IMG/VR virus record: IMGVR_UViG_2703718841_000001
Length of the DNA stretch: 16,747 bases
Origin: a virus
Lineage: Duplodnaviria; Heunggongvirae; Uroviricota; Caudoviricetes
Strand: one strand, 5' to 3'
The translations under genes were made by a program, and so were the position numbers. This document shows, piece after piece, positions 20-13,922 of the stretch (its first letter is position 1; the number at the start of each line of letters is the position of its first letter). The notes beneath the pieces were generated by a model, which did not search any database, had not been told where the DNA came from, and worked only from the letters and a program-made list of their open reading frames with translations.

Positions 20-1315
20 TTAATTTTTCATTGCTTCGTTATGGGGCATGGTTGGGGCAAACTCGCTTAACTGTGTATTTAACAAAGCTACCTGTGCATT
101 ATTGTTTTCAGACATCCATTTTCCGTATACCTGAAATACCATTTGCGCATCTGCATGGCCCATCTGGTTTGCTATAAATGCCGGGTTAGCACCAGCTGTC
201 AGCGACCAGCAGGCATAAGTATGTCTCGACTGATATGATTTTCGATGGCGGAGTCCGGCACGTTTTATCGCTGCGTCCCACATCTGCCTTATTGAGTCAA
301 CGGTAAAATGGTCACCATAATTTTTTACTCTCGCTGACACTTCAGGTTGAAAAACAAAGGTGCATTTTTGTTTTTCTGTTCTGCCATACTCTCTGAGGTG
401 AACATCAATGATATGCTCTTTGCTCAGTCTCGTTAATGTCATCTGACTCCGGAGAGCGTCGATTGCTGGCTTAATAAGATGAATGACCCGATTGGTTCCC
501 GCCTGTGTTTTTGGTACCGTGAAACGGTCTTTTGCTAAATTTCTCCTGATCATCATTGTTCCATTTTTCAGATCTATGTCCTCCCATCCAAGTGCACACA
601 GCTCACCAGGGCGAACTCCAGTATAAACAGAAACACACCATAAATTTTTTGCTTGCTGATTTCTGCACGCATCGATAAGACGGATAAATTCTTCCCGCGA
701 AAGAGGATCCGGAATGGTTCTTGATTCCTTTAATGGCGAGATCCCCTTAAACGGATTATCTGCCAGGTAACCGTTATCAACACCAAACTGGAACACGGCG
801 TTAAGATTTGTCATGTAATTATTTACAGTTACAGCCGATCTCCCTGGTTGTGTAACAATATAGTTACTTTTGGGGATCTGGTATCCAGTCAGTAACTCTT
901 TACGAACCTCCAGTAATTTTTCTTTATTAATCGATGAGGCAAGATTTTTTTCACCGATTATGCTCAGGATATTTTTGATGACGGCACGGTATGTGTTGAG
1001 TGATGTTTTGGCGACTTCAGTTTCTTTCAGTGCCAGAAATTTTTCAGCCAGTTCTTTTATGGTTAAATCTTGTCGGGCCTCACCAAATTTTTCCAGATTG
1101 CGTGAGGAGGGAAACTGTTTTGCATAGTCGAAAACACCAGTTTTTATTTCGTAACAAACAGAGGAGCGTAGTTCACCTGCAACGCGCCTGTTTTTTGCTG
1201 TGTCAGGAACCCCCAGATTTTCCCTGACTCTTACGTCTTTATAAACAAACCAGATACGTAATTTCCCTCCATGGTTTTCCACGCCTGTCGGATATTTCAT
1301 TTCAACTTCTCTCAT
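20..1315 (-). CDS. Phage-type tyrosine recombinase (integrase)
   Basis: 431-codon ORF. C-terminal region carries tyrosine-recombinase catalytic signature (…RHRKSYQSRHTYACWSL…GHADAQMVFQVYGKW). Sits beside an excisionase-like gene, as in prophage integration modules. Alternative start at 1300 (MKYPTG…). Confidence 0.88.
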   Translation of the reverse strand: MREVEMKYPTGVENHGGKLRIWFVYKDVRVRENLGVPDTAKNRRVAGELRSSVCYEIKTGVFDYAKQFPSSRNLEKFGEARQDLTIKELAEKFLALKETEVAKTSLNTYRAVIKNILSIIGEKNLASSINKEKLLEVRKELLTGYQIPKSNYIVTQPGRSAVTVNNYMTNLNAVFQFGVDNGYLADNPFKGISPLKESRTIPDPLSREEFIRLIDACRNQQAKNLWCVSVYTGVRPGELCALGWEDIDLKNGTMMIRRNLAKDRFTVPKTQAGTNRVIHLIKPAIDALRSQMTLTRLSKEHIIDVHLREYGRTEKQKCTFVFQPEVSARVKNYGDHFTVDSIRQMWDAAIKRAGLRHRKSYQSRHTYACWSLTAGANPAFIANQMGHADAQMVFQVYGKWMSENNNAQVALLNTQLSEFAPTMPHNEAMKN

Positions 1316-1334
1316 TAGTTAGTGTGGCTTTTAG

Positions 1335-1586
1335 TCAAGTAAGATGACGTCTTGGTCTCGCTGATGCCTGGCGCTCAATCCAGCGATCAATTTCTTCCAG
1401 GTTGTAAAAGCATGGACTGTTATCCCATGGCATACCGTCATGAGCGACATGCTTATATTCCCTTCCTTCCATAAACGATTTTTCCCGGGCCTTTTTTAAC
1501 GTACCTTTTTTTATTCCTTTCAGCGCAATTAACTGCTCTTCGGATACCCATTTGCCGGGAGAGACAATCATGATTACTTCGCTCAT
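1335..1586 (-). CDS. Excisionase-like small DNA-binding protein (Xis/AlpA-like)
   Basis: 83-codon ORF immediately upstream of the integrase on the same strand. Small basic protein with W…G.KK.TL.KAREK…EG.EY pattern typical of excisionase-like proteins. Family assigned from pattern and position only. Confidence 0.55.
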   Translation of the reverse strand: MSEVIMIVSPGKWVSEEQLIALKGIKKGTLKKAREKSFMEGREYKHVAHDGMPWDNSPCFYNLEEIDRWIERQASARPRRHLT

Positions 1587-1658
1587 CGATTTCTTTATCT
1601 CTTACATCAGACGAGCGCCGGTTGCAGAATACCAGTCACAACCGGCGACAGTTGAACA

Positions 1659-4130
1659 TTAAGAATCAGCCTGACTCGGGATCAGTTTTTGCCAGATAAC
1701 TGAAACGTATTTTGCCTGGTAACGGGCGTCATCAAGTGCATTATGGCGCTCACCTTCGAATGGAATAGCCGTTCTGGCATCGAAGTCTATGGCTTTCCCC
1801 AGCTCAACGATTGTGCGTACATCGCGATCGTTGTAGTAACGCCACGGGCAGGGGATCCCCTGCCGTTCGTATGAACGGCGCAAAATCGTGTTGTCGAAGT
1901 TGGCTCCATTTCCCCAAACCTGAACAAAAAATTCACCGGAGTTTTCGTCGATAAATTCTCGCAATTGTAACAGTGCATCATCTAACGGGATTTCATCGGT
2001 CATAATGGCAGATTGCGCTTCGCGTGATTGCTTAAGCCACCATTTAATGGTGTCCCGATCAATGACTCCGCCAGCAGTTTCCAGATCGATAGTCTTACTA
2101 AATTCCGGTCCCATATCTCCGGTTTGCGGATCGAAAAATATTGCACCTATTGAGATGATCGGGGCATCAGGATTTTTTCCCATGGTTTCAAGGTCGATCA
2201 TTAGATGGTCACACGTCCTGCTGGTGGATGTGATTTCGTGATGACCGTTCACCTTAATTGGGTGATCTGCCGTCTCGCCAGTTTCATTATCGCTATTGTG
2301 ATGCTGATTGCCGCCAGTGTTCTCCTTGTGTGGATGTTCAGCGCCTTCCATTTCCTCCGGATCATCTTCCTGAACTTCAACCTGATACTCTTCATCGAAT
2401 GTTTCTTGGTATGTTGCGTCGCCCATCACCGCGCCACAATCAGGGCAGTTGCCGCCGCCGGTCTGACCGCAGGCGGTGCAGACTTTTTCCACTTCCTGTT
2501 GCGCTACTGGTTCAGGCTGTTTCGTTTCTGGCTCGTTTTGTAACGCATTTGGACTGTTTTGTTCCGCTTTTTGGTAGTTCCGTTCCGATTCATGCTGGTT
2601 CTGGTTCACAGAATCGCGGGTCTGGAGCCCCTTAACCCATTTCGGATCATTCGGGTCACTAATCCCTTCAACAAATTCACCACGTGATGCAGCAAGCAAC
2701 TTATCGGCGTCAGGCTGGCTGATATTGGCTGCCTGCATAATTTTGTTTACTTCGTCAGCGGTAACTTTTATCGGCTCTGGTTGTTCTGAATCTTCAGCGG
2801 TATCTACATTTTGCGGTAAGCCCGTGTATGTGCCATTTTTTCGGGCAAAATATTCTTCTTTTGTGATTTCAGTGGCGCCAGCAGCCAGTGCCTTATCCAG
2901 ACCAGAGAGTTTGTTTGCGCGACCGTATTTTTCTCCGTCCTTATCTGCGAAGAGGAAATAGAACGGCCTCTCACGCTCTACAGATGGTTCAGCTTCCGGC
3001 GCGGTTTCATTTTTTGGGATATCAGATACCTCAGTTTCCACTGCATCAGTTTGTGTTTCTGATGACTGGAGAACATCAACAGTGCCCAGGTCTGTTTCTT
3101 CATTCTCAAACACGCCCTTTGTCGTCAGGTATTCGCAGATATATTTGTTCAGTGCTACGGGATCTTTGTGAATGTCGATCGGACGCTCACGGACAAGGCC
3201 AAAAATAGTTTGGCGGTCGTAGCGAAGGGCATCAGGCTGTTTGCGCATTGATGCCGAGATACGCTTCCAGTCTTCGCGGTCGTTGTCGATAACTTCTTTT
3301 TTTGCCCAGCGATGGATGCTGCCGTCAATGTTTCCGGCATCCACATCACTAGGCCAGAGAGCGTAGGCCAGTTCGTCATCCAGTGTTTTCCATGTCTGCT
3401 TGTATTCGCGATGAATGGCAGCAATGACCGGGCTGATTTTTCCTGTTGAATTTTCAGTGTACTGTTGATTGGCTCTGGCGCGGGCGAGATCAACAACAGA
3501 CGTGTATTTTCCGGTTTCCTTGCGTTCACCTTCGCGACGTTTTTTCCAGATGCGCATCTCTGCCTGAATTTCGGGCCATTTAGCACCAGGAATACATTTA
3601 TGCTTAACCCACCCAATGGCGTGCAACTTAAGCTCCGGATACATGGCGTTAACTTCTGGCATTTTCATCAACGCTTCAACGATATGTCCGTCGAATGTTG
3701 CCATGTCTTCCTGCAACAATTCCTGTGCGCTAATAACCATATCAACGGTGATGTTTTCACATGTGTCGAACTTAACCATGACAGCGTTCTGTACTTCAGG
3801 GGCCAGCTTGTCAAAAGTGACGTTCATCGGATCGGATTCAGTCTCAACCGGGACAAAAGAAGCAGACTCCTCATCCCAGCGGTTTTCCTGCATATATTCA
3901 GCATCCCATGAATCGAGGGCAGGGCGGGGTATGCCAGGTTTATCCTCGCAGACAATAAATTTATAAGCGCAGTCCTGAGCAGCCGGATAATGTTCCAGGA
4001 ATTGCCAGTGAAATTTTGCTCGAGCACGGCGTTCGTCGCCAGCTTCAATGGCTGTGGCTACAGCCACAGCGCCTTCTTCCCTTGTTGCCAGTTCGTCAGG
4101 AATAGCGGCGCAAATAAAGACTTTACTCAT
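1659..4130 (-). CDS. Large exonuclease-like protein with C-terminal DEDDh 3'-5' exonuclease domain
   Basis: Long ORF (track 1659..4166). Preferred start is ATG at 4130 (MSKVFICAA…) with GAGG about 10 nt upstream. C-terminal ~185 aa carries DEDDh motifs: [30 protein letters not shown]. Centre is acidic and low-complexity with a CxxC…CxxC zinc ribbon ([16 protein letters not shown]). Confidence 0.8.
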
Positions 4131-4222
4131 TTGTTTTAACCTCATGACAGATTTAAGGATGAACAAATCCCTGCCATTGCTGGCATATAAGAATGAAACC
4201 GGATATTTATTACGGAACTGTT

Positions 4223-4414
4223 TTAAAGACCTGCCGGGATTTCGATATTATCCTGGTGAATAACTTTATCGACCGGGTAACAGTTACCGGGAATTTTCTG
4301 TTCGGTTGCTGCAGTCATACACTCCTGCATTGTCCTGTGAACACTGACTGCAATATCAACTGGCTCTCCGGAAACAAGAAAAACTGTCAGAACAAGCACA
4401 AATGCTGAATTCAT
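4223..4414 (-). CDS. Small signal-peptide (exported) hypothetical protein
   Basis: Preferred start ATG at 4414 ([18 protein letters not shown]…) with AAGGA 9 nt upstream. N-terminal hydrophobic signal-like segment; two Cys in the mature part. 63 aa. Confidence 0.5.
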
Positions 4415-4566
4415 TGTGCACATCCTTTTGGCATCAGACGTAAACGAGCCAGCATTGAAACAATGCATATTTTATTTAATAGCTCCCGTTCTTGTTTTCT
4501 CTTGTTAATGGCATCTTCAGTAAATACTGGGTTAACTGGACTGCCTGGGCCAATGACGTGCGCACA

Positions 4567-4782
4567 ATGCGGATGCTGGATGGCAGAAGCCACAGACAAA
4601 TTTGCGAAATGTTTGGTCGGGTTCAGCGAGATCCATTCTGGGTAAAAAACATCATGAGCCCGTCAAAGCTCCGCGAAAAATGGGACGAACTGGTCATCCG
4701 CCTGGGACGTTCACCTGTACAGCGTTGTGTTAATCATATTTCTGAACCGGATACAGAAATTCCGCCTGGTTTCAGAGGATAA
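4567..4782 (+). CDS. Hypothetical protein (start uncertain)
   Basis: Track ORF 4492..4782 starts at TTG; first in-frame ATG is 4567 (MRMLDGRSHRQICEMFG…). No convincing SD. Overlaps a second frame (4463..4645), so a frameshifted remnant is possible. Confidence 0.3.
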   Translation: MRMLDGRSHRQICEMFGRVQRDPFWVKNIMSPSKLREKWDELVIRLGRSPVQRCVNHISEPDTEIPPGFRG

Positions 4783-4822
4783 GTGTTGATTTCAGGTCAT
4801 GAGGTAATTTTAAGGGGGACTT

Positions 4823-5245
4823 GTGGCAAAAGTTTTTACACAAGAAGAGCGGGAAAAAATTAAATGGCAGGTGGTGGAACTCGTGCGCCAGAGCGGCCGT
4901 GAGACGTTACGGCAACTGGAAGCTAAAACAGGTGCGACTAGATATCTGATGAGCGTTCTTGCCAGAGAGCTGGTAGCCAGTGGCGATGTATACAACTCCG
5001 GCTACGGGTTATTCCCCTCTGAACAGGCGCGTAAGGACTGGCAAAACGCCCGCAAAAAACTCTCGAGGGCAAAGGTGAAGAAACCTGCTGTGGTTGATCC
5101 GGACCTTATCTGGTCATCACCTGACGGAGAAATACGTCGCTACGACAGTCGCCTAAACATAATCTGTCGCGAGTGCCGGAAGAGCGAAGTTATGCAGCGC
5201 ATACTGGCTTTCTATCAGGGTAATTTTCAGGACGTGGCGCAGTGA
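4823..5245 (+). CDS. Hypothetical protein, possible winged-helix DNA-binding protein
   Basis: 140-codon ORF with GTG start and GGGGG SD about 4 nt upstream. Its stop TGA (5243-5245) overlaps the GTG start (5242) of the methyltransferase frame, indicating translational coupling. HTH-like segment RETLRQLEAKTGATRYLMSVLARELV. Confidence 0.6.
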   Translation: MAKVFTQEEREKIKWQVVELVRQSGRETLRQLEAKTGATRYLMSVLARELVASGDVYNSGYGLFPSEQARKDWQNARKKLSRAKVKKPAVVDPDLIWSSPDGEIRRYDSRLNIICRECRKSEVMQRILAFYQGNFQDVAQ

Positions 5246-5688
5246 GTGCACCGGCAACCATTCTTGATATGTGCTGTGGCAGCCGCATGTTCTGGTTCGA
5301 TAAGTCTGACGAACGGGCGATATTCAGCGATATCAGAAAAGAAGGATACACATTACGCAATGGGAGACGCTTGATTATCAGCCCTGACATTATCGCAGAT
5401 TTTCGTGCATTATCATTTGCAGACGCATCTTTTTCGATGGTTGTATTAGACCCTCCGCATCTTGAGAGTGTTGGTGATAACGCCTGGATGGGAAAGAAAT
5501 ATGGACGGCTGAATAAAGATGCCTGGCGTGATGATTCGCGACAGAGATTTAAAGAAGCCTTTCGGGTGTTGAGGCCGCACGGCGTTCTGATTTTTTAATG
5601 GAATGAAACGCAAATACCGGTAAGCCAGATTCTGGCACTGACAGACAGAAAACCTGTTATCTGTCAACGAACAGGGAAAAAACGATAA
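5242..5688 (+). pseudogene. SAM-dependent DNA methyltransferase, apparently interrupted by an in-frame TAA
   Basis: N-terminal 118 codons (5242..5598) carry LDMCCGSRMFWFDK and VVLDPPHL (DPPY-like) motifs. Frame stops at TAA 5596-5598 after …RPHGVLIF, yet the same frame reads on coherently (WNETQIPVSQILALTDRKPVICQRTGKKR) to TAA at 5686-5688. Confidence 0.55.
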
Positions 5689-6750
5689 AACCCACTGGAT
5701 TATTTTTATGAAAGAGGCATCCAGTGAGTAGATTCGTAAGGCTACAGATACGTATATCTGAATAATTAAATTCAGTTCTGTAAATAAAATTTAATCCTTA
5801 ACCGGATGGATTTCTGCACCCTCAGAACATCAGGAGGCCGCCCGAAAGGGCGGTAGTGAAATGCGAAAGTTCAAAATTATTATTGAAACGGGAATAGCTG
5901 GTGGAGATTTTGAGGATGTATTCGAAGTGGACGATGACGCAACACCTGAGGAAATTCATGACGGAGCATAAGAAATTTTCTTTAACTACTGCAATTACTC
6001 ATACCACGAAATAAAAGACGATGAGGAAGAACAAAGTGGCTGATTTTTGTTCAGCTAAATATAACATCAGTTTTGAAGAGCGGGATGAACTATTAATGGA
6101 CTATGGTGAGTTACGCGGTGGAAGTGCTGCTGATGTCGAATCCTAGCGTGATGACTATGAAGCGGGAAAAACTCCGGTCGAAGCATATTGTGATGAGTGG
6201 GGCGATGAATGAGCGAGATTAATTATCAGGAAGGGCATGAAACGGCGGGGCAAGCAAAACCAGTGGCATGGCGATATCGCTACGTGAAAAAAGGCGTTAC
6301 GGACTTTCAGGGGAAGTAGTGGTCTGGTGACTGGAAATATGTACCGAAAAAAGAGGATTGTAACGACAGGCCGAACTATCAAATTCAGGCCTTATTCACT
6401 GCCTCACCAGTCCCAGTTACATCAGAAGAACTGGTTAAAGCTGTGCACTTTTATGAACAACTAAAACGCGAAAATCCACCAACATCCGGCAACTAGATTA
6501 ATGGATTAACTATGTCGGTTAAACGACCAGCCAACTGAAAAAGCGGAAACCTGATTACAGGTTGCCAGATAAGGCAATGAGCTACCTGGCGCGGAACGGA
6601 CTGATAAGTATGGGGAATGTTTTACGATGAACCTTTAGACTAAAGAGTTTGTAACGCTATGTAAGTGATTTTTTCTGGTTTAGATATTTATATGTCCGGC
6701 CAAATTGAGGTGTGTTTAAATGTAATTGCACATTGATTGTAGGAGGAATA

Positions 6751-6930
6751 ATGAAAAACGCATTGCAGTTTTTGTTTGTTGCGTTCTGGTTGTTCGCATC
6801 ATGTATGCCCATCATCTTCACAGCAAGGTATATGGAAAAAGTTGATGTTTTGATATTAATATTTGGATATATAAATGCCCTTTTTTTAGGGGTGTTCATG
6901 GCGGTCATGTGCATTGAATACTGGCGGTAA
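6751..6930 (+). CDS. Small hydrophobic membrane protein (59 aa, two predicted TM helices)
   Basis: ATG at 6751 preceded by consensus SD AGGAGG (6741-6746). Product MKNALQFLFVAFWLFASCMPIIF…VLILIFGYINALFLGVFMAVMCIEYWR. AT-rich with rare codons, suggesting foreign origin. Track ORF 6712..6930 uses an upstream alternative start. Confidence 0.5.
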   Translation: MKNALQFLFVAFWLFASCMPIIFTARYMEKVDVLILIFGYINALFLGVFMAVMCIEYWR

Positions 6931-7020
6931 ATACAGCGAACTCCATTGGTTTAGTTGGATATTTACTGTACTGGACAAAAACGGTTTGCGGGGAAATCTT
7001 AGTTAAGTAGAATGACTGCG

Positions 7021-7190
7021 GGTGCTTGAGGCTATCTGCCTCGGGCATGGACACCAACGGCAGATAGAGAAAAGCCCCAGTTAACATTACGCGTCCTGCA
7101 AGACGCTTAACATTAATCTGAGGCCAATTTCATGCTAGACACATGTAGGTTAGCCTCTTACGTGCCGAAAGGCACGGAGAAGCAGGCTAT
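7021..7190 (+). other. hok/sok-type (type I toxin-antitoxin) leader remnant lacking the hok ORF
   Basis: 15-mer GGAGAAGCAGGCTAT at 7176-7190 is identical to 10490-10504, the SD/start region of hokD in this window. Upstream has hok-leader-like hairpins (7032-7040 with 7059-7067; GAAA-loop hairpin 7161-7176) and a mok-like frame from ATG 7132 to TAA 7207-7209. No Hok-like ORF follows. Confidence 0.5.
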
Positions 7191-8700
7191 TGTTAACACC
7201 AAGCTGTAATGTCCCCTTTGAACCATTCTAAAATGTCCCCAGACAATTCTCTGGGGGATTTTTCATGATCAAAGAGACTGTTACGATGAGTCATAAGGAA
7301 CTCCACCGACTTCAGATTATTCAGGAACAAGCTGCGGCACGCATTGGCATTTCTATTCGGCAGGTTAAACGTCTGGTGCAACGGTATAGAAATGAAGGGC
7401 CTTCTGGTCTGGTTTCCCACCGACGTGGAAAGCGTCCTAATAATTCCTTTTCTACTGAATTCAGAGCAACAGTAATTTCACTCCTCAAAGGCCGTTACGC
7501 TGATTTTGGACCTACGTTTGCGTGCGAAAAATTGCGCGAGATACACGGTTTATCTTTATCCGTTGAAACTCTCAGAAAGTGGATGATAGAAGAGGGGTTA
7601 TGGCGTGAACGCCGTCGTAAAATTGCCCGTATATATCAACGCCGCATGCGACGACCATCTTACGGTGAACTGATCCAGATTGATGGCTCACCTCATGACT
7701 GGTTTGAAAATCGAGGCCCCAGATGTACACTGATCGTTTTCATTGATGATGCCACCAGTGCGTTGATGGCGTTGCGTTTTGTGCCTGCTGAAACAACCCG
7801 GGCTTACATGGAAACCCTCCGGGGTTACCTTAATGATCATGGCGTACCGCTCGCTCTCTACTCTGATAGACACAGTATATTCAGGGTAAATAACCCAGAG
7901 CGGGAAGGTGAGCTGACCCAGTTCACTCGTGCGATAAAGACACTGGGCATCGAGCCAATCCATGCCAACAGCCCGCAGGCAAAAGGGCGGGTAGAGCGCG
8001 CCAATCAGACACTACAGGACAGGCTGGTCAAAGAAATGCGGCTTCAGAATATCAGTGATATTGAAACAGCAAATGCATGGTTGCCGACCTTTATTGAAGC
8101 CTATAACAACCGGTTCGCTACGTCGCCTCGTACTACTGATAATGCTCATCTTGATGTGCACCATTCTGAAGAGGAACTGGGTTATATCTTCAGCCTACAG
8201 GCGAAGCGCGTTCTGTCTAAAAATCTCACTTTCCAGTACAAAAGCAGTGCGTTTCAGGTACGCAGTGAGGGCCGGGGATATCGACTTAGGCATTCGGTTG
8301 TTACTGTATGCGAGAACTTTGACGGTGAAATTAACGTTCTGTATGACGGGAAAGCGCTGGGCTGGGAAAAGTATGTTGATGGCCCGGAGCCTATACCACT
8401 GGATGATGAAAAGAGTGTCCATGAACGAGTGGATAATGCCCGTATTGATTTACGCTCAAAATACTATGTTAAACCTAAAGCTGACCATCCCTGGCTTACG
8501 CGCCGAACGCAAAGTCATCAGCAAGTTAAGCCCCCGAAGTTACCTAAAAAGAAGCCTGATCCCGATAAAAAAGATTGAAACCAAGATCGATTCGGTTGAG
8601 TGCATATCCATTCATAGGGTAGATTCTTAAGTCGCGTTTCTGGTGTTCATTTTCGGGTGGTTTGTTACTTGTTTTACCGGGGATATGCCAGAAACGCGCT
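7191..8700 (+). mobile_element. Insertion sequence carrying the transposase (ends not resolved; coordinates approximate)
   Basis: Left boundary placed at the point where the hok leader homology breaks (7190/7191). Right boundary is a guess; no clean terminal inverted repeats or target-site duplication could be found by eye. Confidence 0.3.
7265..8578 (+). CDS. DDE transposase with N-terminal HTH and integrase-core (rve) domain
   Basis: 437-codon ORF. N-terminal HTH (ARIGISIRQVKRLVQRY), rve-like core (IQIDGSPHDWFE…LYSDRHSIF…QAKGRVERANQTLQ), basic C-terminal tail. Family not resolved (IS481-like or ISNCY/IS1202-like). GGGGGA SD lies in a hairpin just upstream. Confidence 0.85.
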   Translation: MIKETVTMSHKELHRLQIIQEQAAARIGISIRQVKRLVQRYRNEGPSGLVSHRRGKRPNNSFSTEFRATVISLLKGRYADFGPTFACEKLREIHGLSLSVETLRKWMIEEGLWRERRRKIARIYQRRMRRPSYGELIQIDGSPHDWFENRGPRCTLIVFIDDATSALMALRFVPAETTRAYMETLRGYLNDHGVPLALYSDRHSIFRVNNPEREGELTQFTRAIKTLGIEPIHANSPQAKGRVERANQTLQDRLVKEMRLQNISDIETANAWLPTFIEAYNNRFATSPRTTDNAHLDVHHSEEELGYIFSLQAKRVLSKNLTFQYKSSAFQVRSEGRGYRLRHSVVTVCENFDGEINVLYDGKALGWEKYVDGPEPIPLDDEKSVHERVDNARIDLRSKYYVKPKADHPWLTRRTQSHQQVKPPKLPKKKPDPDKKD

Positions 8701-8911
8701 GAGTCAGTCTGGGCGGTGCGCGTAATGAGGCGTTATGGTAAATAGCCTATGCTAATGTCCGCTAAGAGCAAGAAGCGGAAGTTGGCAGTTTTGTGGACTG
8801 TCCCCACAAAAGTGACTACAGAAATAGTTGCAATTCATAATTGATCATGGGTTGTCAGTTAAACTCGTGGCGATTTAAATAGACTAATTGGGAGTGCGTC
8901 CATTACTTATA

Positions 8912-8961
8912 TCTTGTAATGTTAACTATCAGAAATTCTTGTAATGTTAACTATCAGAAAT
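8912..8961. repeat. Perfect tandem direct repeat, 2 x 25 bp (TCTTGTAATGTTAACTATCAGAAAT)
   Basis: Unit at 8912-8936 is repeated exactly at 8937-8961. Contains palindromic GTTAAC. A 12-bp inverted copy (AGTTAACATTAC) occurs at 7079-7090. Confidence 0.95.
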
Positions 8962-9039
8962 GATACAAAGATAATATGTCTTTAAAGAAAAGGCTGATGG
9001 CGAAAAGTGGCCCGATGAGGGCCACAATACGGCTGTCAC

Positions 9040-9372
9040 TTAGACGTAAATATCAATGGTGCCAGCGGTATTTGTATCGTCTTTTTTCTCTTCTTTTTTA
9101 TCAGGCTGAACTGTCGCGTCTTCATTCTTTTTCTCTGCCTGCTGCCTTAACAACTGCTCCAGTTGAGCCCAGAGGCTTTCAATTTGCTTCTGTACCAATG
9201 CAGCCATTTCTTTTTTCTGCTGTGTCGTCATCCCCTCTTCCGATGAGATTTTCCCAAGCTTTTCAGTCAGCACCTGAATTTGTCTTGTGATTTTGGCTAT
9301 TTCTGATGTTCCTTCCGGGGCGGAGTTGTTTGAAATAACGGTTGAGGTATTTCCCTGAATTGTGACAGACAT
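9040..9372 (-). CDS. flxA: FlxA-like protein (flagellar-regulon member of Qin prophage)
   Basis: 110-codon ORF; coiled-coil, Lys/Glu-rich product matching FlxA as I recall it. AAGGAG SD upstream of ATG (9372). Sigma-28 promoter immediately upstream. Confidence 0.85.
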   Translation of the reverse strand: MSVTIQGNTSTVISNNSAPEGTSEIAKITRQIQVLTEKLGKISSEEGMTTQQKKEMAALVQKQIESLWAQLEQLLRQQAEKKNEDATVQPDKKEEKKDDTNTAGTIDIYV

Positions 9373-9395
9373 AGATTTCTCCTTTTAAAAAAGCA

Positions 9396-9422
9396 CTATC
9401 GGCATGCACAAAAAAATCTTTA
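9396..9422 (-). promoter_or_regulatory. Sigma-28 (FliA) promoter for flxA
   Basis: On the minus strand: TAAAGATT (9415-9422), 11-nt spacer, GCCGATAG (9396-9403). Consensus is TAAAGTTT-N11-GCCGATAA. Lies about 25 nt upstream of the flxA start. Confidence 0.75.
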
Positions 9423-9574
9423 ATCGTATTTCTTGTGTCATTAATTGTTTGATGTTCAGATTGTTTTCCTCGCGGGCTGGCGCGCCTCAGAAAGTAAAGC
9501 TTGTTGACAGGGGTAAACGTTCGGCAATAATTTTCTGCCGCATGCGGGTGTTGCATAAAACGTGTTACGTTCCT

Positions 9575-9880
9575 TTATCGACAGGTCAGGTCACCGCTCA
9601 CCCGCCGACGAGAAAGCAACACTGACATGCTAAAGCAAAAAATAGATGAATAAGTTGAGTTGTGCATATGTAGCCTGACCGTCACAAAGTATATGGTGTC
9701 TGTACCAGTAAGATGATGACCGGACTCTTTAAAAACGAGCTGACCTGCACAATACAGGATGGACTTAGCAATGGCTGCTCCTGGCACAAAGCGGACAGTG
9801 ATCACCGTTCTTACGACTACTTTCTGACTTCCTTCGTGACTTGCCCTAAGCATGTTGTAGTGCGATACTTGTAATGACAT
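9575..9880 (-). CDS. ydfV: Hypothetical ORF, ydfV-like by length and position (doubtful gene)
   Basis: 101-codon ORF between flxA and relB, matching the length and position of ydfV in Qin as I recall it. Its start codon lies inside the relBE operator; no SD. Coding status doubtful. Confidence 0.25.
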   Translation of the reverse strand: MSLQVSHYNMLRASHEGSQKVVVRTVITVRFVPGAAIAKSILYCAGQLVFKESGHHLTGTDTIYFVTVRLHMHNSTYSSIFCFSMSVLLSRRRVSGDLTCR

Positions 9881-9893
9881 TTGTAATTACAAG
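9868..9893 (+). promoter_or_regulatory. relBE operator/promoter region (relO-like inverted repeat)
   Basis: CTTGTAATGACATTTGTAATTACAAG, an inverted repeat around TTGTAAT, directly upstream of the relB SD (GAGGTG) and ATG at 9905. Confidence 0.7.
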
Positions 9894-9904
9894 AGGTGTA
9901 AGAC

Positions 9905-10144
9905 ATGGGTAGCATTAACCTGCGTATTGACGATGAACTTAAAGCGCGTTCTTACGCCGCGCTTGAAAAAATGGGTGTAACTCCTTCTGAAGCGCTTCGT
10001 CTCATGCTCGAGTATATCGCTGACAATGAACGCTTGCCGTTCAAACAGACACTCCTGAGTGATGAAGATGCTGAACTTGTGGAGATAGTGAAAGAACGGC
10101 TTCGTAATCCTAAGCCAGTACGTGTGACGCTGGATGAACTCTGA
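9905..10144 (+). CDS. relB: RelB antitoxin (type II TA)
   Basis: 79-codon ORF, MGSINLRIDDELKARSYAALEKMGVTPSEALRLMLEYI…; stop overlaps relE start (TGATG). Confidence 0.92.
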   Translation: MGSINLRIDDELKARSYAALEKMGVTPSEALRLMLEYIADNERLPFKQTLLSDEDAELVEIVKERLRNPKPVRVTLDEL

Positions 10145-10431
10145 TGGCGTATTTTCTGGATTTTGACGAGCGGGCACTAAAGGAATGGCGAAAGCTGGGC
10201 TCGACGGTACGTGAACAGTTGAAAAAGAAGCTGGTTGAAGTACTTGAGTCACCCCGGATTGAAGCAAACAAGCTCCGTGGTATGCCTGATTGTTACAAGA
10301 TTAAGCTCCGGTCTTCAGGCTATCGCCTTGTATACCAGGTTATAGACGAGAAAGTTGTCGTTTTCGTGATTTCTGTTGGGAAAAGAGAACGCTCGGAAGT
10401 ATATAGCGAGGCGGTCAAACGCATTCTCTGA
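10144..10431 (+). CDS. relE: RelE toxin (ribosome-dependent mRNA interferase, type II TA)
   Basis: 95-codon ORF, MAYFLDFDERALKEWRKLGSTVREQLKKKL…; overlaps relB stop by 1 nt. Confidence 0.92.
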   Translation: MAYFLDFDERALKEWRKLGSTVREQLKKKLVEVLESPRIEANKLRGMPDCYKIKLRSSGYRLVYQVIDEKVVVFVISVGKRERSEVYSEAVKRIL

Positions 10432-10502
10432 ACCAAAGCATGACATCTCTGTTTCGCACCGAAGGTGACACTTCTGCTTTGCGTTGACAGGAGAAGCAGG
10501 CT

Positions 10503-10658
10503 ATGAAGCAGCAAAAGGCGATGTTAATCGCCCTGATCGTCATCTGTTTAACCGTCATAGTGACGGCACTGGTAACGAGGAAAGACCTCTGCGAGGTACG
10601 AATCCGAACCGGCCAGACGGAGGTCGCTGTCTTCACAGCTTACGAACCTGAGGAGTAA
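10503..10658 (+). CDS. hokD: Hok-family type I toxin (HokD/RelF)
   Basis: Found by direct reading; below the ORF-track length cutoff. ATG 10503, product MKQQKAMLIALIVICLTVIVTALVTRKDLCEVRIRTGQTEVAVFTAYEPEE (51 aa), stop 10656-10658. GGAGAAG SD upstream. Confidence 0.85.
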   Translation: MKQQKAMLIALIVICLTVIVTALVTRKDLCEVRIRTGQTEVAVFTAYEPEE

Positions 10659-10726
10659 GAGACCCGGCGGGGGAGAAATCCCTCGCCACCTCTGATGTGG
10701 CAGGCATCCTCAACGCACCCGCACTT

Positions 10727-10753
10727 AACCCGCTTCGGCGGGTTTTTGTTTTT
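10727..10753 (+). terminator. Rho-independent terminator downstream of hokD
   Basis: Stem CCCGC / GCGGG with TTCG loop (10729-10742), followed by TTTTTGTTTTT. Confidence 0.75.
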
Positions 10754-10874
10754 ATTTTCAACGCGTTTGAAGTTCTGGACGGTGCCGGAATAGAATCAAA
10801 AATACTTAAGTAGCGCGCAGGGATAAGAGGGATGGTCCCTTAAAGGGGAGAGCTAATTATCCGGAAGGATTCTG

Positions 10875-11126
10875 ATGATGAACATCGAAGAACTGCGTAA
10901 AATTTTTTGTGAAGATGGCCTCTATGCTGTGTGCGTTGAAAATGGAAATCTTGTTAGTCATTACCGCATTATGTGTTTGCGAAAGAATGGGGCTGCGTTA
11001 ATTAATTTTGTGGATGCTCGGGTCACGGACGGATTTATCTTGCGCGAAGGTGAGTTTGTCACTTCATTACAGGCATTGAAAGAGATCGGAATAAAAGCTG
11101 GCTTTTCTGCTTTTTCAGGAGAATAA
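10875..11126 (+). CDS. rem: Rem-like small protein (Qin prophage)
   Basis: 83-codon ORF in the position of rem, after hokD and before ydfU, in the Qin gene order as I recall it. Function unknown. Confidence 0.7.
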   Translation: MMNIEELRKIFCEDGLYAVCVENGNLVSHYRIMCLRKNGAALINFVDARVTDGFILREGEFVTSLQALKEIGIKAGFSAFSGE

Positions 11127-11192
11127 ACTCATCTACAATCTTGCGCGGGGCTGAACTCCCGCTGAGTAACACCGTGCCACCGGAGAAAACCG

Positions 11193-11471
11193 ATGGCACG
11201 CAACGCAAAATATTACAATTCTGATAATTCGCCCGTTCTTGCCTGCACGCACGGGCGGTATTCTCACGCATTCAAGTCTGAATGGTTCCAGCACCCTCCA
11301 TGCACTGCAGAACAGGCCGAATGGCTGATTCATTCTTACCGCAGGCGCGGGTTCGAGGTTAAGAAAGCTCTCAGTCTCGACTATCGGCACTGGATAATCT
11401 CTGTCAGGCTGCCTTATTCCGAACGCCCACCACGTGCGTCCCGCACTTTCCAGCAACGGATCTGGAGGTAA
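11193..11471 (+). CDS. Hypothetical protein (92 aa), translationally coupled to ydfU
   Basis: ATG 11193 with GGAG about 8 nt upstream. Stop TAA 11469-11471 lies 1 nt before the GTG start of the next gene. SD and start sit in opposite arms of an imperfect inverted repeat. Confidence 0.5.
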   Translation: MARNAKYYNSDNSPVLACTHGRYSHAFKSEWFQHPPCTAEQAEWLIHSYRRRGFEVKKALSLDYRHWIISVRLPYSERPPRASRTFQQRIWR

Positions 11472-11472
11472 C

Positions 11473-12522
11473 GTGCGGGTATTACTTAGACCTGTTCTGG
11501 TGCCTGAGCTTGGGCTGGTGGTCCTTAAGCCGGGCCGTGAATCCATACAGATATTTCATAATCCTCGAGTGCTGGTGGAACCGGAACCAAAAAGCATGCG
11601 TAATCTGCCATCCGGAGTCGTTCCTGCCGTTCGCCAGCCGCTGGCGGAAGACAAAACATTGCTGCCGTTTTTTAGTAACGAACGGGTGATTCGTGCTGCT
11701 GGCGGCGTTGGCGCATTGTCCGACTGGCTATTACGTCATGTTACATCCTGCCAGTGGCCTAATGGCGATTACCATCACACTGAAACAGTCATTCACCGTT
11801 ATGGTACCGGCGCAATGGTGTTGTGCTGGCACTGCGACAACCAACTGCGTGACCAGACATCGGAATCACTGGAGCTGCTTGCTCAACAAAATCTGACAGC
11901 ATGGGTGATTGACGTCATCCGTCACGCAATAAGCGGTACGCAGGAGCGGGAATTATCTTTGGCTGAATTATCCTGGTGGGCGGTCTGCAATCAGGTGGTG
12001 GATGCACTACCTGAGGCTGTATCGCGTCGTTCGCTGGGATTACCAGCGGAAAAAATCTGCTCGGTGTACCGCGAAAGCGACATCGTACCGGGAGAGCAGA
12101 CCGCCACCAGCATATTGAAACAACGCACAAAAAATCTTGCACCGTTGCCTTACGCCCACCAGCAACAAAAATCACCACAGGAAAAGACGGTGGTAAGCAT
12201 CACCGTTGATCCAGAGTCTCCGGAATCTTTCATGAAGCTGCCTAAACGTCGCCGCTGGGTTAAGGAGAAATACACACGTTGGGTTAAGACACAGCCGTGT
12301 GCTTGCTGCGGTATGCCAGCCGACGATCCGCATCATCTGATTGGTCACGGGCAGGGCGGAATGGGAACAAAAGCACATGATCTCTTTGTGTTGCCTTTGT
12401 GCAGAAAGCATCACAACGAGCTGCATACGGATACAGTGGCATTTGAAGATAAGTATGGCTCCCAACTGGAGCTGATATTTCGTTTTATCGATCGCGCGCT
12501 GGCAATTGGCGTACTGGCGTAA
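11473..12522 (+). CDS. ydfU: YdfU-like DUF968 protein with C-terminal Cys/His (HNH-like) motif
   Basis: Track ORF 11434..12522; preferred start GTG 11473 with GGAGG 4 nt upstream, giving 349 aa. C-terminus CACCG…DDPHHLIGHG…LPLCRKHHNELH. Confidence 0.75.
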   Translation: MRVLLRPVLVPELGLVVLKPGRESIQIFHNPRVLVEPEPKSMRNLPSGVVPAVRQPLAEDKTLLPFFSNERVIRAAGGVGALSDWLLRHVTSCQWPNGDYHHTETVIHRYGTGAMVLCWHCDNQLRDQTSESLELLAQQNLTAWVIDVIRHAISGTQERELSLAELSWWAVCNQVVDALPEAVSRRSLGLPAEKICSVYRESDIVPGEQTATSILKQRTKNLAPLPYAHQQQKSPQEKTVVSITVDPESPESFMKLPKRRRWVKEKYTRWVKTQPCACCGMPADDPHHLIGHGQGGMGTKAHDLFVLPLCRKHHNELHTDTVAFEDKYGSQLELIFRFIDRALAIGVLA

Positions 12523-12535
12523 GTGGAGAACGAGC

Positions 12536-13288
12536 ATGAACCTTGAAGCCTTACCAAAATATTACTCCCCAAAATCTCCAAAATTGAGCGATGACGCTCC
12601 AGCGACAGGCACCGGTTGTTTAACAATTACGGATGTAATGGCAGCGCAGGGGATGGTGCAGTCGAAAGCACCACTTGGGTTGGCCTTATTTCTGGCAAAA
12701 GTTGGTGTTCAGGACCCTCAGTTTGCGATTGAAGGCCTGCTAAATTACGCGATGGCACTGGATAACCCGACATTGAACAAATTGAGTGAAGAAATCCGGT
12801 TACAGATTATTCCTTACCTCGTGAGTTTTGCCTTTGCTGATTACTCCAGGTCTGCGGCAAGTAAGGCTCGCTGTGAGCATTGTTCAGGTACGGGATTTTA
12901 TAATGTATTGCGCGAAGTGGTGAAACACTACAGACGCGGGGAATCTGTAATCAAGGAAGAATGGGTGAAGGAACTATGTCAGCATTGCCATGGTAAGGGC
13001 GAAGCCAGCACAGCGTGCAGAGGGTGTAAGGGTAAAGGGATTGTTCTGGATGAAAAAAGAACCCGGTTTCATGGCGTACCGGTATATAAGATTTGTGGGC
13101 GTTGTAATGGAAACCGGTTTAGTCGTTTACCGACCACGCTGGCACGACGTCATGTCCAGAAGCTGGTACCAGACCTGACCGATTATCAGTGGTATAAGGG
13201 GTATGCGGACGTCATTGGTAAACTGGTAACAAAGTGCTGGCAGGAAGAAGCATACGCGGAAGCGCAATTGAGGAAGGTGACGAGATAA
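12536..13288 (+). CDS. quuQ: Late-gene antiterminator Q (phage 21/Qin type)
   Basis: Track ORF 12506..13288; preferred start ATG 12536 with GGAG 8 nt upstream (250 aa). Cys-rich zinc-binding region CEHCSGTG…CQHCHGKG…CRGCKGKG…CGRCNGN. Lies directly upstream of a late-promoter/terminator module. Confidence 0.85.
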   Translation: MNLEALPKYYSPKSPKLSDDAPATGTGCLTITDVMAAQGMVQSKAPLGLALFLAKVGVQDPQFAIEGLLNYAMALDNPTLNKLSEEIRLQIIPYLVSFAFADYSRSAASKARCEHCSGTGFYNVLREVVKHYRRGESVIKEEWVKELCQHCHGKGEASTACRGCKGKGIVLDEKRTRFHGVPVYKICGRCNGNRFSRLPTTLARRHVQKLVPDLTDYQWYKGYADVIGKLVTKCWQEEAYAEAQLRKVTR

Positions 13289-13319
13289 ATGATTTTTGCT
13301 GAAGATGGCGACATGATGT

Positions 13320-13348
13320 TTGCATTTTTCAAAAAATATGGATAAAAT
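13320..13348 (+). promoter_or_regulatory. Candidate late promoter (PR'-like) downstream of Q
   Basis: TTGCAT (13320-13325), 17-nt spacer, TAAAAT (13343-13348). Position matches the Q-utilisation site of lambdoid phages; a terminator follows about 50 nt downstream. Confidence 0.45.
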
Positions 13349-13397
13349 TTTTTCAACGATGGGCTTTGTATACCCGACGTTAAGAAAAAGTAGAAAA

Positions 13398-13420
13398 CCC
13401 GCTGATGAGCGGGTTTTGTG
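13398..13420 (+). terminator. Rho-independent terminator (candidate tR')
   Basis: Stem CCCGCT / AGCGGG with GATG loop (13398-13413), followed by TTTTGTG. Confidence 0.7.
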
Positions 13421-13709
13421 CTTTAAATGGGGCAATGGTAATGTTGAATCTCATCCCGGGACTCATGTCTGTTAACTTATTATTTAGCTGGTGACTTGGT
13501 TATTTGCCTGATGTTTAAAATGTTTTCTTCCAGTACAATGTCCCTAAACACAATGAGTCTGCTTATTATATTATTAGCAGAGCTATTACGGCCAAAGTAC
13601 AGCATAAGCTTTTAAAGCCAATCAACCAGTCATCAAGACAGACGGGGTTATTCATAAAAACTCTCCATGTGTGATCCGATGGGGCCTGAAATTAAAGCTT
13701 TAATATAGC

Positions 13710-13922
13710 TCATGAAAGGTAAACATTGGCAGCTGAAGGGCCACGCAGACCATTTATCCGGCAAAATTCCACGCGTAATCCGGTGGTAATTTCTTCTGCA
13801 TCGCGGAGATTGAGCGCTGAAACATGAAGCTGGACATCGATACGACCATCGGATGGGGTGATAAGACCCTTGCCGCTTTTGCCGTCAAAGGTTTTGACAA
13901 TTCCTGTCATTTTACGGGACAA
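13710..13922 (-). CDS. cspF: Cold-shock-domain protein CspF
   Basis: 70-codon [47 protein letters not shown]…; CspA-family fold, divergent from cspB as in Qin. Confidence 0.85.

Follow-up and report, generated by a model that had tools for sequence, protein, structure and literature searches.

The perfect 25-bp tandem repeat at positions 8912–8961 of the window (the whole analysed stretch of 16,747 nucleotides) is an ordinary short tandem duplication polymorphism; it is neither a target-site duplication nor an iteron or operator. It is probably a derived, recent, and neutral duplication in the AT-rich non-coding cargo DNA of a transposon. The best explanation overall, which we hold to be probable, is a one-off derived duplication produced by an error of replication or repair, inherited neutrally and devoid of function. 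The window represents the cryptic prophage Qin of E. coli; all of its 16,747 bases are shared with strain PSJ-12 (100% identity), and around the doublet it is identical to strain ATCC 8739. The doublet matters little in itself and is a handy lineage marker for ATCC 8739/Crooks-like strains, PSJ-12, and the porcine O139 ETEC group. The transposon in which it lies was a by-product of this analysis and is of more interest than the doublet.

Sequence and location of the doublet

The repeat consists of the following features:

8912–8936, no strand: copy 1 of the 25-bp unit TCTTGTAATGTTAACTATCAGAAAT; a single unit is present here in K-12 and about 1165 other E. coli records
8937–8961, no strand: copy 2 of the unit, carried by about 30 of about 1195 E. 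coli records and by 2 of 123 metagenome or viral loci

The unit TCTTGTAATGTTAACTATCAGAAAT occurs twice head to tail with no mismatches (8912–8936 equals 8937–8961). Both direct comparison and Tandem Repeats Finder (period 25, 2.0 copies, 100% matches, score 100) confirmed the perfect duplication claimed in the sequence-only reading. The copies are joined without a spacer, and the array comprises exactly 2.0 copies: the base before the array (8911) is A, the unit ending in T, and the base after it (8962) is G, the unit beginning with T, so the unit is continued on neither side. The bases meeting at the left edge, the center, and the right edge are A/T, T/T, and T/G. Since the flanking bases mismatch the unit on both sides, there is neither junction microhomology nor a partial third copy, and since the two copies are identical, the older one is indistinguishable. 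No further copy of the unit with up to three mismatches was found in the window or in 200 shuffles.

The unit is non-coding and AT-rich, with a G+C content of 24%. As had been proposed, the positions of the open reading frames place it between a transposase gene (7265–8578, plus strand) and flxA (9040–9372, minus strand), that is, between the 3' ends of convergent genes and downstream of a terminator-like hairpin of flxA, recognized by eye at about 9008–9026. The other sequence features reported for the unit were also recovered. The palindrome GTTAAC is present inside each copy. The word CTTGTAATG recurs in the relBE operator at 9868–9876, although the shared word is really the 10-mer TCTTGTAATG at 9867–9876, and the 12-mer GTAATGTTAACT is found in inverted orientation at 7079–7090, within the hok/sok leader (Rfam, 7020–7191).

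The doublet is genuine and not an assembly artefact, since about 30 complete genomes show it independently, four separate ATCC 8739 assemblies among them, and two IMG/VR contigs contain it as well. Searches of publications on flxA/ydfW/Qin and on ISEsa1 found nothing on the 25-bp repeat.

Copy number in related genomes

About 1165 complete E. coli records, including K-12, carried one unit with flanks otherwise 100% identical, and two units were found in about 30 of the approximately 1195 records carrying the region (about 2.5%). A synthetic three-copy query retrieved no genome with three units. All 47 metagenome loci with the unit had one copy, as did 74 of the 76 IMG/VR loci, the remaining two having two copies. 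Among the GTDB species representatives, the unit was present only in E. coli and Shigella, as a single copy. The flanks were alike in all 123 metagenome and viral loci save for a few point differences, so the unit is confined to one genomic context and is not a dispersed repeat. One copy was also found in divergent Qin-like prophages (96_1414B, CFSAN064036, and S. flexneri) and where the same transposon has inserted independently at another location (locus L104). Taken together, the prevalence of the single unit in E. coli, metagenome, and IMG/VR loci, its state in divergent relatives, and the independent insertion indicate that the ancestral state is one copy, from which the doublet derives as a rare allele. 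The sequence-only reading had left it to a comparison of orthologous loci to decide between one and two ancestral copies, and this census answers in favor of one. Identical head-to-tail copies whose number varies among orthologous loci are the mark of a simple tandem duplication polymorphism.

The opposite polarity, in which two copies were ancestral and the common one-copy state resulted from deletion between perfect repeats, is very unlikely. Such deletion between 25-bp tandem repeats is mechanistically easy, and reversion from two copies to one must occur at some rate, but every divergent relative and the independent transposon insertion carry a single copy. Moreover, the undeleted haplotype of the adjacent IS has one copy in 38 of 38 loci, the two-copy state is limited to a derived sub-haplotype, and divergence between the two copies is zero.

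The transposon enclosing the doublet

To judge by an empty site and by the structure of its ends, the segment 7191–10489 is one ISEsa1-like transposon of the IS1202 family, 3299 bp in size, inserted in the hokD locus. The features of this region are listed below:

7020–7190, plus strand: hok leader and sok antitoxin region (Rfam RF01794, 104 bits), severed from the hokD coding sequence by the transposon
7176–7190, plus strand: left 15-bp target-site duplication GGAGAAGCAGGCTAT, from the hokD Shine-Dalgarno sequence through the 'AT' of the start codon
7191–10489, plus strand: ISEsa1-like transposon, delimited by the empty hokD site of 1532WA; hok homologues end at 7190
7191–7216, plus strand: left terminal inverted repeat TGTTAACACCAAGCTGTAATGTCCCC, starting with the TGT of the family; a second ATGTCCCC lies 24 bp inward
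7265–8578, plus strand: transposase ORF, IS1202 family (ISEsa1-like), 437 aa compared with 446 aa in the plasmid copies owing to an in-frame 27-bp deletion
8784–9776, no strand: variable cargo segment with the AT-rich spacer containing the doublet, flxA (9040–9372, minus strand), and most of ydfV (9575–9880, minus strand)
9777–10463, plus strand: conserved right module with relO, relB (9905–10144), relE (10144–10431), and the subterminal region
10464–10489, minus strand: right terminal inverted repeat; in reverse complement it reads TGTCAACGCAAAGCAGAAGTGTCACC and agrees with the left repeat at 19 of 26 positions
10490–10504, plus strand: right 15-bp target-site duplication GGAGAAGCAGGCTAT, running into the hokD coding sequence (ATG at 10503)

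Strain 1532WA (locus L162) has an uninterrupted hokD, in which window sequence 6800–7190 is joined directly to 10489–10753; therefore, 7191–10489 is a single 3299-bp insertion. The sequence GGAGAAGCAGGCTAT is present only once in this empty site. The transposase matched the NCBIfam profile NF033594 with 456 bits (cut-off 250) and was annotated as belonging to the IS1202-like ISEsa1 family, in agreement with its earlier assignment to the IS1202 family; its C-terminal end corresponds to 'ydfW/intK' of K-12. Members of the IS1202 family have TGT...ACA ends, imperfect terminal inverted repeats of about 22–29 bp, and a flanking direct repeat (PMC10132070). The segment 7191–10489 has a DDE transposase and all of these features: its ends read TGTTAAC... 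on the left and ...GTTGACA on the right, corresponding to TGT...ACA of the family, the 26-bp inverted repeats match at 19 of 26 positions (binomial P ~4e-7 at positions fixed by the empty site), and a direct repeat flanks the element.

The transposon carries the transposase, flxA, ydfV, and relBE genes, and the overall order is hok/sok leader, transposase, spacer with the doublet, hairpin, flxA (minus strand), ydfV, relB, relE, and hokD. Thus, an ISEsa1-like transposon that split hokD houses the classical relBE locus of E. coli as well as flxA and ydfV. Independent plasmid copies of the IS share the window sequence only from 7191 to about 8773–8783, and comparison with other transposon members showed that family homology stops at about 8779–8783 and resumes at 9777–9781. 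FlxA matches Pfam PF14282. The 27-bp deletion in the transposase gene is located at window positions 7313–7326 (L005, 723–763), between 14-bp direct repeats, and both forms of the gene occur in Qin prophages. The region 8774–8840 was considered as a remnant of the hok 3' end, with the 12-mer acting as the hok mRNA pairing element, and was rejected because the intact hokD locus places the coding sequence at 10503–10658.

The target-site duplication hypothesis

The leading idea of the sequence-only reading was that the doublet is a target-site duplication generated by an IS. The long duplications it named for the IS1202 group do exist: 27–28 bp are reported for IS1202 and ISSeq2, 15–17 bp for the ISTde1 group, and 5–6 bp for the ISAba32/ISAjo2 group (PMC10132070; bioRxiv 10.1101/2022.12.17.520857). 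The doublet resembles such duplications in several respects. Its length is in the range of the longest of them, the transposase about 330 bp away belongs to the right family, and microhomology-free junctions are what a filled-in staggered cut is expected to leave. Nevertheless, it is extremely unlikely that the doublet was made by 25-bp staggered cuts of an IS1202-family transposase, whether as the target-site duplication of the element next to it or as the footprint of one that has excised. The copies are contiguous, with nothing between them, and flank no element; rather than lying at the two ends of the transposon, they lie inside it. The unit does not border an IS end, a point raised earlier, since it starts at least 128 bp beyond the end of the conserved IS module. 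Strains cq9, ETEC1716, and BN01 carry this IS at the very same position and have one copy, and K-12, which retains only an IS remnant, also has one copy. No locus of the type unit-element-unit was found among the 123 checked loci or the approximately 1195 E. coli records, the latter not screened individually. The unit resembles the IS end no more than chance predicts (551 of 1000 shuffles do equally well), and an enterobacterial IS with a 25-bp duplication is absent from the family tables. E. coli is not known to have an end-joining system able to leave a clean excision footprint. Finally, the duplication made by the element itself is 15 bp in three independent insertions. None of the three properties of a target-site duplication, namely a flanking position, a copy number that tracks the element, and a characteristic length, was found in the doublet.

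By its position at both transposon ends, the long IS1202-family duplication of this window is the 15-bp repeat, whose copies are 3.3 kb apart, and not the 25-bp doublet. The doublet therefore provides a cautionary case, in that a perfect repeat near a transposase need not be a target-site duplication. We also considered the unit as a cryptic IS end; however, the region 8700–8965 matched the left IS end at only 14–15 of 24 positions, which is at chance level, and local alignment performed no better than with shuffles.

Sister elements and spread of relBE

Sister transposons share the left (transposase) and right (relBE) modules, contain different cargo, and occupy the same position in other, diverged hok loci. 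The element of pKP2509-MCR (L164, 12041–16640) is 4600 bp in size, carries genes for cytochrome b and a CDF transporter in addition to relBE, and is flanked by the 15-bp duplication GGAGAAAAAGGCTAT. A 12,843-bp element in pRHBSTW-00508_2 (L163, reverse strand, 938–13780) carries relBE and the ncr and chr genes for nickel and chromate resistance, and has the duplication GGAGAAGAAGGCCTG. The perfect 15-bp duplications of these sister elements start with GGAG, and with the window (L163 and L164 being the other two), a perfect 15-bp duplication was found in three independent insertions. The location of the sister insertions suggests target specificity, with a marked preference for the Shine-Dalgarno/start region of hok genes.

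Several related loci were observed. L163 contains a second, 91%-identical element inserted in the regenerated target. A fourth target, GGAGTTGTATGGGTC(C), is split between L005 and L068, and L145 is also among the sister-transposon loci, along with these two. In IMGVR_UViG_2912051188_000002 (L104, 1345–4645), the same element, 3301 bp in size, with flxA-relBE cargo and one 25-mer, was found outside a hok locus, with the 6-bp direct repeat CGCCTT as its sole flanking duplication; this copy either departs from the 15-bp rule or has been rearranged. The Salmonella plasmid pCVM19633_110 was uninformative as a further insertion site, the element there being truncated by IS26 and ISSen3.

The region 9777–10489, comprising relO, relB, and relE, has counterparts with an identity of at least 95% in over 1100 plasmid records, which come from Klebsiella, Enterobacter, Salmonella, and others. 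In plasmids, relBE homology stops exactly at position 10489, the transposon end, where hok homology begins. Ramisetty and colleagues reported that relBE was integrated into hokD from plasmids and left the vehicle unnamed; given the boundaries described above, this vehicle appears to be the ISEsa1-like transposon. In the description by Harmer and Hall (PMC10132070), ISEsa1 measures 1609 bp, makes no detectable duplication, and has no known target, and Siguier and colleagues gave 15–17 bp repeats for the ISTde1 subgroup in a paper whose main text does not mention ISEsa1. In the literature searched, we found no description of the transposon anatomy, including its role as a relBE vehicle, the 15-bp duplication, and the preference for hok. 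This anatomy bears both on the spread of relBE and on the reported lack of a target-site duplication and a preferred target in ISEsa1.

Possible functions of the doublet

Another option put forward in the sequence-only reading was that of tandem protein-binding sites, which would imply that the two units bind RelB, the transposase, or another regulator and are kept by selection. Each unit starts with the relO word TCTTGTAATG, and the motif TGTAATGT is also present in the left IS end, where two ATGTCCCC-type sites 24 bp apart resemble the TGTAATGT motifs spaced 25 bp apart in the doublet. However, chance alone is expected to give the unit a word of at least 10 bp in common with the remainder of the window (P ~0.34), and the similarity of the unit to the left IS end does not exceed the chance level. 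The relO (the RelB/RelBE operator at about 9867–9892, upstream of relB) has a period of about 12 bp, whereas the doublet has one word per unit, and its TTGTAAT words, 25 bp apart, are out of phase with this period. In addition, the doublet is situated away from promoters, between convergent 3' ends, with no promoter to regulate. The perfect identity of both copies would be consistent with selection, but recency explains it equally well. The second copy is lacking at about 97% of the orthologous loci and hence is not maintained. Binding sites kept by selection are thus highly improbable. The earlier description of the repeat as "recent or maintained" holds in its first part and fails in the second for the same lack of conservation.

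The doublet is similar to iterons and other tandem binding arrays in being composed of direct repeats of about 20–25 bp in a mobile-element context. Unlike them, it has only two copies, is located between convergent 3' ends, and is accompanied by no replication or partition gene; the conservation of repeat number and sequence across relatives that characterizes iterons and operators was not found.

A small-ORF scan revealed no reading frame of 20 or more amino acids sensibly spanning the doublet, an Rfam scan found no family at this position, and a promoter/terminator scan was likewise negative for the repeat itself. The sole promoter-like site, TTAACT-17-GATAAT at 8947–8975, uses the downstream flank; therefore, it is also present in the one-copy allele and is unchanged by the duplication. 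From these predictions we infer that the doublet has no function, since it creates no ORF, promoter-like site, or phased binding sites. The 12-mer GTAATGTTAACT common to the unit and the sok region is mildly unusual (P ~0.03), cannot be extended, and has no obvious role. A likeness to the XerD arm of dif sites (TAATGTTAACT versus TTATGTTAAAT, 9 of 11 positions by eye) was discarded; there is no XerC arm, and about four such matches are expected per window by estimate.

Origin and mechanism of the duplication

The IS adjacent to the doublet exists in two forms, intact or with the in-frame 27-bp deletion between 14-bp direct repeats. All eight typable two-copy loci had the deleted form, and the typable one-copy loci comprised 33 with the deleted and 38 with the undeleted IS. 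The junction of the doublet was identical in all two-copy loci. The nesting of the doublet in one derived haplotype, together with its invariant junction, fits a single recent event, and the haplotype data are thus consistent with the doublet having arisen once. No SNP diagnostic of the two-copy allele was found over approximately 11 kb in 17 loci, the prophage being too uniform. Structurally, the prophages with the two-copy allele fall into at least five types (ATCC 8739, PSJ-12, the LD39-1 group, the porcine O139 group, and LZHX12), which differ from one another in the deletion lying to the left of the doublet. Either the origin of the allele is older than these deletions, or it was spread by recombination.

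Recurrent duplication at a fragile site would also produce such a distribution, if the same positions were nicked each time, such as those within the loops of the small hairpins CATTAC-N9-GTAATG and TATC-N6-GATA. Both junctions map to predicted hairpin loops or their borders, the allele occurs on several structural variants without any marker SNP, and an independent IS600 insertion is located at the exact left junction. We nevertheless regard recurrence as unlikely. The hairpins are weak and no better than those in shuffles (z = -1.3 and -0.8), a three-copy allele is absent, the IS600 coincidence is a lone post hoc observation, and the restriction of typable two-copy loci to the 27-bp-deleted haplotype, with one-copy loci split about evenly, fits one origin.

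The IS600 insertion was found in strain 96_1414B (L003, 6338–7599), with a 3-bp duplication TCT at window-equivalent positions 8912–8914. These are the first three bases of the unit, so the insertion is at the same nucleotide as the left junction of the doublet. We treat it as a coincidence, while it may be one hint of a fragile or exposed site.

Short tandem duplications and indels arise by replication misalignment, including slipped-strand and template-switch mutagenesis in E. coli. The doublet is similar to short spontaneous tandem duplications in being head-to-tail, identical, non-coding and AT-rich, polymorphic, rare, and derived, and differs from them in having no junction microhomology and no three-copy alleles. 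Classical slipped-strand duplication usually shows a few bases of microhomology at the junction. At the junctions of the doublet no short direct repeat was found, with zero shared bases on either side; such microhomology-free junctions are atypical for simple slippage and are as expected from fill-in of a staggered break. Slippage, the third option of the sequence-only reading, survives in the broad sense of a replication or repair error. The 27-bp deletion in the neighboring IS does show classical microhomology, in contrast to the 25-bp duplication.

The preferred scenario would start from one spontaneous error, made during replication or repair of AT-rich non-coding DNA. Such an error could be a strand misalignment or a template switch between sister strands, or else the fill-in and re-joining of a staggered break. 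The doublet would then have been inherited, while independent deletions later occurred elsewhere in the prophage. A more specific variant, in which staggered nicks 25 bp apart were filled in without insertion, either through abortive target capture by the resident transposase within its own cargo or at a structure-specific fragile site also hit by IS600, seems very improbable. If it were true, the duplication would recur and would report a DNA-cleavage activity of a new sort.

Structural variants of the Qin prophage

The left half of Qin has many deletion variants, as seen from comparison of the window with ATCC 8739 (L001), K-12 (L002), and loci L012–L022. Examples are the deletions ydfX-ydfW in K-12 and dicF-dicA-ydaT in the window, as well as exonuclease-DUF977 and ydaT-DUF977. 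The right half of the prophage is almost SNP-free. Strain D3 (L004, about 5001–5248) and at least five similar genomes contain the equivalent of window positions 8753–9025 without the transposase. This segment extends from the last approximately 20 bp of the IS module through the one-unit spacer; an unrelated integrase island lies upstream of it, and an IS3 has inserted behind it at the flxA terminator. The D3-type arrangement is probably a deletion derivative.
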